Assembly (NCBI GenBank): GCA_046581755.1
Contig: JAYGFR010000100.1
Coordinates: 1-20,873 of the forward strand
Direction: 5' to 3'
Origin: Nitrospinota bacterium
GTDB taxonomy: Bacteria > UBA8248
Length of the DNA: 20,873 nt
A program made the position numbers and the translations under genes. Below are positions 17,276 to 19,676 of the stretch, in pieces; positions within the stretch are counted from its first letter, which is position 1, and the number at the start of each line of letters is the position of its first letter. Under the pieces are notes generated by a model, which had not been told where the DNA came from, did no database searches, and saw only the letters and a program-made list of their open reading frames with translations.

Positions 17276-17599
17276 CTATGTTACCCTAGAAGCCAATGCT
17301 GGAGGGCGGAGCAGAGCGAAGCCCGGAGGCATTGGCTCTATCGTCTCAGGCGCCGGCGGCCTGTAGCCGAGTGCGCTGTGGGGCCTGATGCGGTTGTATT
17401 CATGCCTCCACCTTTCCGCCAGCACTTTCGCCTCATCGAGCGTATCGAAGAACTCTCGGTTCAATAGCTCATCCCGCATCTTCCCGATGAAGGATTCCAC
17501 ATAGCCGTTCTCCCAGGGGCTGCCCGGCTCGATGAAGAGTGTCTCCACCCCGAGGCGTGAGAGCCACCCCCTCACCCGGCGAGCAGTGAACTCAGGGCC
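17276..17599 (-). pseudogene. IS3-family transposase OrfB, 3' fragment
   Basis: GPEFTARRVRGWL...FIEPGSPWENGYVESFIGKMRDELLN...WRHEYNRIRPHSALGYRPPAP. Confidence 0.92.
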
Positions 17600-17763
17600 C
17601 TAGTACATCACGAACGATGTCAGGATCGGTGGATGAGGCAGTTGGCTTAGAAGATGAGCCGGCGGAGCGAGCGAAGCCGGCTCATCCAAAGCGGTGGTCA
17701 TGGTTGGCAAGTGCTCCCCTAAGATGGGCTCTGCCCGACTCTCAAGCAAGAGGAGCGCCAGCC

Positions 17764-19020
17764 ATGACCCATGTGAAGTCTACCATCGAGGAGAGCGTCT
17801 TGGTCGCCATTGATATCGCCAAAGCGCGCAACCACGTTCTTATCGACCCTCCGGGCGGATCACCCCGAAAGCGTTTCAAGATGGCCAACGCAGCAAGAGA
17901 CTTCCGGGATTTTGCGGTTTACCTCAAGGGCTTCGCCCTGCCGGTTCGCGTCGGCTTCGAGGCCACGGGCAACTACCACAGGCCGCTGGCTCACTTTCTC
18001 CTGACCCAGGGCTTCGAGGTGCGGCTAATCTCTTCGGTGGCGCTGGCTAGGACCCGCGAGGCCATGCACAACTCCTGGGACAAGAACGATCCCAAGGACG
18101 CCCAGGTAATTCTCCATCTGCTCAAGGTTGGCCTGACGCAGATCTATCACGACCCGCTCTTTCGCGGCATCAACGACGCCCAGGAGCTCTCCAAGACCTA
18201 CCATCAGGTGTCCCTGGAGAAGACCCGCGTCCAGCACAGGCTTTTGACCCACTATCTGCCCTTCTATTTCCCGGAGGCGCAGACCTACCACCACTCGGCC
18301 CGCTCAGAGTGGCTGTTCCGTCTGCTCCTCGCATTTCCCATCCCGACCAGTATCCCCCGCCTGGGCGAGGAGGCGTTTATCGCCCAGGCGGGGGACGTGG
18401 TGGGCCGCAAGGTCAACAAAGCCCGCATACTGGCGGACTTCTACCGGACGGCCTTGGAATCCATCGGCCTGCCGGTGGCCGAGGACTCTCAAGCCGTAGC
18501 CATGTTCCGCCTCGTCCTGGGGGAATATCTCACCCTCTGCCAGCTGAGAGGCCAGATCGAGCAGACGGCATGCGATTTTTTCAAAGAAGATGCGGACTAC
18601 TTTCGGCTCACCCAGGTGCCCGGCATCGCCCTCACCATACTGGCCGAAGCCGGCGACCTGAGGCGGTTCTCTCACCACAGGCAGTTCCTCAAGTTCTGCG
18701 GGCTCGACCTGTCCACCCGACAGTCCGGGCGGTTCCGGGGGGCGACCAAGCTCTCCAAGTATGGCAACGCCAGGCTGCGCTCGGCGTTCTGGATGGCCGC
18801 CAGCGCCGCGGTCCGGCTGCGCGAGAACAGCTTCCGCGCGAAGTTCGACCGCTATATCCGGCACAACCCCCAAGACCCGGACCTCAAGCGCAAGGCCTAT
18901 TGCGCGGTGGCCGCCAAGGTGGCCCGGGTCGTCCATGGATTGATCAAGAACGGGACCGACTATCGCCCCTACCACGAGGAGGCGATACCAAGTGGAGGAG
19001 TCCGCTCAGGAGGGCCATAG
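17764..19020 (+). CDS. IS110-family DEDD recombinase/transposase (418 aa)
   Basis: VAIDIAK (D), FEATGNYH (E), DKNDPKDA (D,D), Tnp domain GL...QSG, SKYGNARLRSAFW, AVAAKVARVVH. ATG 17764 with AGGAG. Confidence 0.95.
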   Translation: MTHVKSTIEESVLVAIDIAKARNHVLIDPPGGSPRKRFKMANAARDFRDFAVYLKGFALPVRVGFEATGNYHRPLAHFLLTQGFEVRLISSVALARTREAMHNSWDKNDPKDAQVILHLLKVGLTQIYHDPLFRGINDAQELSKTYHQVSLEKTRVQHRLLTHYLPFYFPEAQTYHHSARSEWLFRLLLAFPIPTSIPRLGEEAFIAQAGDVVGRKVNKARILADFYRTALESIGLPVAEDSQAVAMFRLVLGEYLTLCQLRGQIEQTACDFFKEDADYFRLTQVPGIALTILAEAGDLRRFSHHRQFLKFCGLDLSTRQSGRFRGATKLSKYGNARLRSAFWMAASAAVRLRENSFRAKFDRYIRHNPQDPDLKRKAYCAVAAKVARVVHGLIKNGTDYRPYHEEAIPSGGVRSGGP

Positions 19021-19200
19021 AGGCGAATTCGACCTAGTAGACAATGCTCGGACCTTCCACTTGGGCGCGTATTTTGTTTTGAGTACGGTGAAGACCACGG
19101 CCGATACCGATGGATCTTGTGTCACTATGGTCAAGAGCGAAGCCCACAACCGGTGGAAGCCACTTGGACTGGACCACAACAAAAACGCCTCGTTCGAGGC
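18988..19200 (+). ncRNA. Putative bridge RNA / seekRNA of the IS110 element
   Basis: A stem CCAAGTGGAGG-A-GTCCG / CGGACCTTCCACTTGG encloses guides AGGGCCAT and GACAATG, which match the insertion target. A second loop with the same spacing matches the circle junction. The RNA ends are unknown. Confidence 0.75.
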
Positions 19201-19229
19201 AAGGGGGACTTGCTGACCCAAGACCGCCA

Positions 19230-19235
19230 TTGACA
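19230..19235 (+). promoter_or_regulatory. Outward-facing -35 box (TTGACA) at the IS110 right end
   Basis: Perfect TTGACA 13 nt from the end. In the circular form it lies 17 nt from TACATC (17604-17609). Confidence 0.6.
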
Positions 19236-19248
19236 CCGCAGTTAGTAC

Positions 19249-19593
19249 GTTGTCCGAGCGGATATGGCCCGGAACGCCAAGCCGGACGAAGAGTTCTGTC
19301 AGACGGTCCAGAACATCCTCGGACGTGAGCTTTCTGGCCACATCTATCGACAGACACTCCCGCGTGAACTCATCCACCACCACGAGCATCCGAACCGGGC
19401 GTCCATCCCGCGTGCGTTCCACACAGAAGTCATACGCACACACATGATTCCGTCTCTCGGGCCTCCTCCTCACGCATGAACCATCATTCAGCCAGAGCCA
19501 TCCCCGCTTGGGCTGTCTCCGGGGAATCTTGAGGCCCTCTCTTCGCCAGATCCTCTCTACACGCTTGTGGTTCACCCGCCAGCCCTCATGCCT
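19249..19593 (-). pseudogene. IS3-family transposase OrfB, 5' fragment (N-terminally truncated)
   Basis: EGWRVNHKRVERIWRREGLKIPRRQPKRGWLWLNDGSC...NHVCAYDF...VVDEFTRECL...PGHIRSDN. Confidence 0.92.
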
Positions 19594-19676
19594 TCCGCGC
19601 GTCCGAATCTCCGGGCCAGGGCGCATCCCCCCTTCAATCTCCCCCTCCCCGGCTCCGGGCCCGGCTCATGGCCGGC

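Follow-up and report, generated by a model that had tools for sequence, protein, structure and literature searches.

Does the second of the two loops that follow an IS110-family recombinase gene bind the element's own ends, acting as the donor-binding loop of a bridge RNA, and around which core would it do so? The locus lies in a contig of a Nitrospinota bacterium, of which the whole stretch of 20,873 nucleotides, hereafter the window, was analysed. A preliminary description, made from the letters of the window, had proposed a bispecific bridge RNA with a relaxed core of effectively one nucleotide. Comparison with homologous elements leads us to consider it highly probable (roughly 0.87) that a bridge RNA with two loops has its donor-binding loop at 19069-19138, whose guides track the element ends and would pair GTTAGTA-CG/TAGTA (the slash marking the junction) around a C-R core. 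This provides a covariation-backed guide map for an uncharacterised clade of bridge recombinases with a non-CT degenerate core, and the map could help to program sites poorly served by enzymes of the IS621 type.

The element and the gene it interrupts

Sites of 14 bases are numbered as for IS621, with the core C at position 8. By the junction rule derived from homologs, the window holds a single IS110-family element at 17601-19249. Its insertion splits a minus-strand IS3-type integrase between the S-D and the G-P-E-F codons.

17276..17599, minus strand: interrupted IS3-type integrase, downstream part (rve_3), starting with GPEF
17592..17600, plus strand: left target half, positions 1-9, TCAGGGC-CC, also found in independent contigs; C17600 is an outlier, relatives having A or G
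17601..17605, plus strand: left end of the element, equal to the right donor half, positions 10-14, TAGTA (homolog junctions and empty-site comparison)
17764..19020, plus strand: IS110-family recombinase P0001, 418 aa (profile matches), whose final codons run into the target loop
19241..19249, plus strand: right end of the element, equal to the left donor half and core, positions 1-9, GTTAGTA-CG (homolog junctions and empty-site comparison)
19250..19626, minus strand: interrupted IS3-type integrase, upstream part (HTH_21, rve); on the plus strand, 19250-19254 is the right target half TTGTC

P0001 contains the domains PF01548 and PF02371 (DEDD RuvC-like and C-terminal Tnp) and scores 194 bits against NF033542, whose cut-off is 140. 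Residues D17, E66, D109, D112 and S321 are unchanged in 9/9 aligned recombinases and, from the likeness of their spacing to that of IS621, are predicted to be catalytic. In the window the recombinase gene has noncoding flanks of 163 nt upstream and 229 nt downstream, and the bridge-RNA loops are located downstream of the gene in all aligned relatives. By identity to P0001, the nearest named elements are ISMex12 (59%), ISRel25 (57%) and ISYps2 (46%), which are named in ISfinder-derived tables only and constitute one protein cluster, separate from ISEc21 (Durrant Supplementary Table 1, PMC11208160). Neither a second copy of the element nor an intact empty host allele was found in its own genome, 50 other genomes of the phylum gave one partial relative only, and an Rfam search of the window returned no match.

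The left end of the window element has a strong GC-rich hairpin at 17651-17688 (GATGAGCCGGC..GCCGGCTCATC); many relatives carry a hairpin of other sequence at this place, which is absent from some short left ends (~85 nt). A perfect TTGACA is present at 19230-19235, 14 bases before the right end, with TTGACT at the corresponding place in one relative (L162). We assume that this motif would act as the sigma-70 -35 of a circle-junction promoter, for which the matching left-end -10 is weak.

The probable donor loop and the element ends

The predicted RNA and its surroundings comprise the following features.

18988..18998, plus strand: segment X, within the ORF, forming the 5' side of the stem that closes the target loop (stem covariation)
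19009..19017, plus strand: left target guide GGAGGGCCA, which matches target positions 3-8 and codes for the last residues of the ORF
19021..19035, plus strand: inner hairpin of the target loop, with invariant bulged A19032 (alignment of relatives)
19040..19048, plus strand: right target guide GACAATG (19040-19046) and predicted handshake CT, the handshake role by analogy (PMC11208158)
19054..19064, plus strand: segment X', pairing with X or alternatively with Y1 (stem covariation)
19069..19076, plus strand: 5' strand of the donor-loop closing stem, with its partner at 19132-19138
19079..19087, plus strand: left donor guide region, in which AGTAC at 19082-19086 (positions 4-8) tracks the right end
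19091..19118, plus strand: inner hairpin of the donor loop, with invariant bulged A19114
19123..19131, plus strand: right donor guide CACTATG (19123-19129) and predicted handshake GT, pairing positions 13-8 with U.G at 9
19153..19167, plus strand: segment Y, with Y1 GTGGAAG complementary to X' and Y2 CCACTTGG complementary to X (covariation)
19187..19200, plus strand: small hairpin GCCTC-GTTC-GAGGC, present as described; relatives have hairpins of other sequence nearby (by eye)

The letters of the donor loop are those of the preliminary description, namely GAGTACGG at 19081-19088, TG, the hairpin at 19091-19118, GTGT and CACTATG at 19123-19129, and the inner hairpin is found as drawn in the MFE fold. 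It had also been claimed that both loops have the same spacing; this is true in the window, but only through the pair 19020-19036 of the target hairpin, which is broken in 1/53 sequences, i.e. in the window copy. Counting from the invariant bulged A which both inner hairpins contain, the donor loop is one base longer per side than the target loop. The closing stem proposed between GCGTATTTTGTT and AACAAAAACGC pairs in the window, but only 39% of its cells are paired across 53 sequences. In the stem formed by 19069-19076 with 19132-19138, 81% of cells are paired and two-sided change is seen in 7/7 pairs; for the inner hairpin the values are 96% and 6/6 pairs.

Considered alone, the window carries little weight: 10/200 shuffles of 18976-19250 give a comparable pair of guide matches, and the fold of 19060-19190 is not unusual (z -1.14). 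The donor-guide match exceeds chance because homologs co-vary, and not from the window sequence alone. The homologs include 79 genome and 80 metagenome loci, drawn from the best 80 of at least 556 and the best 80 of at least 529 relatives, together with 4 viral-contig loci, 10 plasmid loci and others from genome searches; after removal of 8 duplicates, 190 parsed loci, window included, were retained. The scoring of guides and ends left out the positions later tested for covariation. Hand curation removed a spurious left end (L099), a spurious right end (L173) and four spurious right guides from truncated loops (L029, L047, L114 and L165); L100, L123, L015, L106 and L018-L022 were set from the printed sequence, and loci without a given part were excluded from the count of that part. 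Stem pairing and two-sided changes were tallied on 53 sequences, and coupled changes were counted by eye on an IQ-TREE tree of 54 representative proteins; the relatives share ancestry, so per-locus counts overstate support.

Positions 4-8 of the left guide equal the right end in 137/145 loci, and they do so in five states (AGGAC 75, AGTAC 53, AGTCC 4, AGAAC 3, AGTTC 2). The left guide differs from the end in 8/145 loci, with a true mismatch at the tracked positions 6-8 in three (L138, L190 and L076), and L028 is a further exception to guide/end agreement. Pairing of the right guide with positions 10-13 of the left end holds in 131/132 loci, where the donor states are TAGC, TAGT, TAAC and TGAT. 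No tracking of the ends is seen for left-guide positions 1-3 and 9 or for right-guide position 14, the latter being mismatched in 68/132 loci; position 9 of the left donor guide is G in 94, A in 44, C in 4 and T in 3 loci, against a near-invariant G in the end. On the protein tree the left guide has 4-5 coupled changes and the right guide 7 (11-12 in total), with 4 one-sided changes, 3 of which keep a G.U pair. By normalised mutual information over 190 columns, the cognate guide column ranks first for donor positions 6, 11 and 12, ties for first at position 13 with the stem pair 19075/19133, and is second at position 7, where it is beaten by column 18995; donor positions 1 and 2 give no signal with the guide in these columns. 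Covariation with the element ends, on which the preliminary description had staked its donor loop, was found in the homologs, and it argues for the reading proposed there, a bispecific bridge RNA with the second loop binding the donor.

With the donor GTTAGTA-CG/TAGTA, the left guide of the window pairs positions 4-9 and the right guide positions 8-13. [quoted passage not shown] As in IS621, the first handshake base is G opposite target C7 in 124/127 cases.

A different account, close to the seekRNA view, is that the loop mirrors the ends by descent, having arisen as a duplicate of the target loop or of the ends, the ends being recognised by the protein and a short inverted repeat, so that only the target loop is needed. 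The inner hairpin with its bulged A is in fact common to both loops, a short inverted repeat, TTCC..GGAA, is conserved around the junction, and a target-only RNA is sufficient for the movement of ISEc21 (PMC11187229). We regard this account as very unlikely, because descent by itself does not yield 11-12 separate coupled changes located 110-1,500 bases apart, one set related by identity and the other by reverse complement.

Core, junctions and the state of the window copy

The donor had been read in the preliminary description as TAGTAC/CTAGTA, with CCT around the junction; homolog junctions and empty sites give CG at positions 8-9. Of 137 unique left junctions, 83 carry G and 54 carry A at position 9; of 133 unique right junctions, 132 carry G and 1 carries A. 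Where both junctions are known (110 sites), the left and right bases are GG in 64, AG in 45, AA in 1 and GA in 0, and 16/20 multi-site clusters contain both A and G at left position 9. Empty IS3 alleles (L232-L234), with flanks 99.7-100% identical to those of L181, show CC-A-TTATC; in the occupied site L181, position 9 is A at the left junction and G at the right one, and comparison with the empty alleles reveals no target duplication. From this comparison left position 9 comes from the target and right position 9 from the element, which places the crossover of the top strand between positions 9 and 11. Identical empty alleles were also sought for L003, L005, L196, L177, L053, L024, L162, L015 and L190, and the identical flanks among the matches listed were all filled; identical empty sites came from L181 only. 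For L196 and L162, relatives at 77-86% had the same A.

On these data the core is predicted to be C-R, and the donor or circle junction to be GTTAGTA-CG/TAGTA. A natural end-to-end junction, ..TAGGA-CG/TAGCA (L018-L022 and L106), has the predicted form. No circle joint was present among the contigs of 4 DNA runs, contigs being a product in which rare forms are dropped. At L018 (1340-1400) and L106 the right end of one clade element adjoins the left end of a different one without any target in between, and this fixed donor-type junction recurs in several Hyphomonadaceae genomes.

Both right guides end in ATG, as had been described; this ATG pairs with C-R-T by U:A or U.G. Opposite position 9, U or G is found in 160/161 right donor guides, 176/177 right target guides and 171/176 left target guides. 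In IS621, once strands have been exchanged, the right donor guide has to accommodate the target core that comes in (PMC11208158), and we infer that the right donor guide keeps U at position 9, despite the G of its own donor, because it must do the same.

The idea of a one-base core, with CCT in the donor and any base tolerated at position 9, takes its support from the left junction of the window, which has C9, also in independent contigs, and may reflect one insertion into a C9 target. Yet C or T occurs at left position 9 in 0/137 unique homolog sites, all of which have A or G, and right position 9 is G in 132/133; moreover the empty sites show that the left base is that of the target, and the guides have U or G opposite it in the proportions given above. 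We therefore consider a core relaxed to one base exceedingly unlikely.

A register shifted by one, in which the core would be R-T, the cut would follow the T and the last G of the right guides would belong to the handshake, is unlikely. T10 is indeed common to donor and target, an invariant T follows the left target guide, and the IS621 protein recognises a T at the second core place (PMC11208158); the left donor guide, however, would then pair only to position 7, short of the core, and the guide-end pattern of IS621 fits C-R instead. The odd loci conflict on the place of the cut: L190 has a non-T on the left, as an R-T core would allow, whereas L015 and L172 have a non-T on the right, which opposes it, and L015 and L190 look mutated. 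For the preferred C-R core, the top-strand cut would come after position 9 or after the shared T10, and analogy with the IS621 guide ends favours 9.

When donor and target differ at a core base, genomes record the winning strand. The 45 A-left/G-right sites against 0 of the reverse argue against an unbiased resolution of duplex exchange, and this inheritance fits a top-strand-dominated integration, which has been reported for CazIS110-1 (10.1101/2025.10.25.684509) and also in 10.64898/2026.08.31.748434; top-strand-guided repair has been suggested for IS621 (PMC11208158). Flush cuts after position 9 on both strands would yield an identical pattern.

The window itself is an exception at its left junction. 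C17600 is without parallel in 137 homolog sites and fits neither target guide of the window. It is a genuine base: contigs of two other runs cross it unchanged. Furthermore, P0001 is without 4 residues after G287 that are present in 8/8 aligned relatives, the corresponding 12-base shortening is carried by 4/4 runs, a pair of the target hairpin is broken as described above, and a base of the short terminal repeat is lost in the window copy (1/52). From these features the copy is likely damaged and perhaps no longer able to move; a later point change is therefore the likelier source of C17600, which may also come from insertion into a variant target.

Target reading, segment Y and related systems

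The targets are D-N-G codons of integrase genes, whose third codon bases make positions 9 and 12 either purine. The right target guide is GATAATG in 164/177 cases, with U opposite positions 9 and 12, and the left target guide has G at position 9 in 171/176. Under the rules of G.U wobble, no letters other than U facing position 9 in both right guides and G in the left target guide can tolerate AAC as well as AAT, and with U at the place facing position 12 either GAC or GAT is tolerated. It is likely, judging from these guide and codon patterns, that the guide reads a protein motif through codon degeneracy via wobble pairs. Positions 7-9 of the left target guide are pairable in 140/142 cases, positions 1-3, 5 and 6 being often unpaired, and positions 10-14 of the right target guide in 142-144/144; little covariation is seen in the target loop because the target is fixed. 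Handshake pairing in this loop is partial (83/145 at position 7). One ISYps2 copy (L163) has a left flank unlike the IS3 gene and adjoining recX, and a right flank that fits the target motif. Targeting of the second D of IS3 transposases has already been published for ISEc21 (PMC11187229).

The recombinase ORF enters the target loop (window 18988-19020), and in many relatives the stop is the TAG that opens the right target guide region. In 46/54 cases the ORF terminates within the left target guide or past it, and therefore translation and target-loop folding compete.

Across 53 sequences, pairing reaches 92.5% for X:X', 93% for X':Y1 and 85% for X:Y2, with two-sided changes in all three; 0/500 shuffles were as high and slid controls gave 32-51%, controls which keep the shared ancestry. 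At three columns, among sequences in which X' carries U but X retains G, the Watson-Crick partner A is found in Y1 in 6/6, 7/9 and 8/8, which points to pairing rather than repeat copying. The covariation of Y with both strands of the closing stem implies two mutually exclusive predicted folds. When the guides are kept unpaired, the window gives equal energies for the two folds (-56.1 and -56.0 kcal/mol), and among 48 sequences the Y fold is a median 4.9 kcal/mol higher, being lower in 8/48; unconstrained folding gives no preference to the Y fold, with P(X:X') of 0.99 in the window. Segment Y is missing in 5/53 relatives; ISRel25 and the ISYps2 group lack it. A tie between the loss of Y and the position of the stop codon was considered and rejected, the stop being inside X or later in 4/5 Y-less elements.

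We tentatively suggest, at well below even odds, a conserved two-state switch at the mRNA end, tying translation to which of the loops is active and through this to excision versus insertion, in which the wobble guides hunt a protein motif of rival transposons. A ribosome finishing the recombinase within the target loop would melt strand X, Y would then pair with X' and X, and the RNA would alternate between a state with distinct hairpins and one with a three-way junction, or a piece made up of the donor loop alone. Equally with such a switch, the Y pairing may be a folding intermediate, an intermolecular RNA-RNA pairing or a mark of a processed donor-only piece. The co-varying Y pairing offers an entry point to how an RNA lying partly within its own gene becomes active.

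The system resembles IS621 (PMC11208160, PMC11208158) in its DEDD and serine recombinase, in the two loops each composed of left guide, hairpin, right guide and two handshake bases, in the left guide reading the bottom strand and the right guide the top strand, in the left donor guide pairing only to position 8, and in right guides that end with G opposite the core C. It differs from IS621 in that the RNA is in the right end, overlapping the last codons of the ORF, and not in the left end; the core is C-R, with G in the donor, instead of CT; the left donor guide is effectively 5 bases; the target is a coding motif and not a REP; and the protein has 418-429 aa against 326. ISMex12, ISRel25 and ISYps2 belong to the same clade, and the same loops, ends and core are found in L163 and in the ISRel25-type L164; the ISMex12 copy examined is interrupted in the donor loop. 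ISEc21 with its seekRNA belongs to a separate protein cluster, has 358 aa and an upstream noncoding region, and its donor loop is outside the short active RNA (PMC11187229).

As in the IS1111 group, the longer noncoding region, with the RNA, is downstream of the transposase gene; unlike IS1111, which has the opposite guide order and 330-350 aa (PMC11187229), the window element has the IS110-type guide order and 418 aa. IS1111 elements have clear sub-terminal repeats of 7-17 bp (PMC11187229); here the repeat seems short and variable, the longest perfect one between the 30-nt ends being 3-13 nt in 52 elements, at least 7 in 22 and 5 in the window, with a conserved kernel TTCC/GGAA. IS110-group elements with a downstream noncoding region are acknowledged exceptions (PMC11187229). 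Taken together, the sequence comparisons suggest that the element works like the IS621 bridge system and has the testable features of the IS110 family, being unlike IS621 in core and RNA position and unlike IS1111 in guide order and protein size. In the literature searched we came across no account of the RNA of the ISMex12/ISRel25/ISYps2 clade, which Durrant Supplementary Table 5 (predicted RNAs per ISfinder element) may place, nor any of the Y pairing or of a C-R core read by wobble.

Among the relatives, L100, L104 and L113 have right ends about 170 nt longer past the donor loop, with extra GC-rich repeats. RNA runs contain 8-21% of the window's words, a share to which no weight is given as evidence. 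Elsewhere in the window, another transposase-like ORF, which we take to be IS256-like, begins at the contig end (20610-20873), and 109-13258 is occupied by a TPR-methyltransferase gene with 102-nt repeats and an ordinary flagellar cluster, in which fliW, csrA, flgL, flgK, flgN, flgJ, flgI, flgH, flgA, flgG and flgF were recognised by eye.
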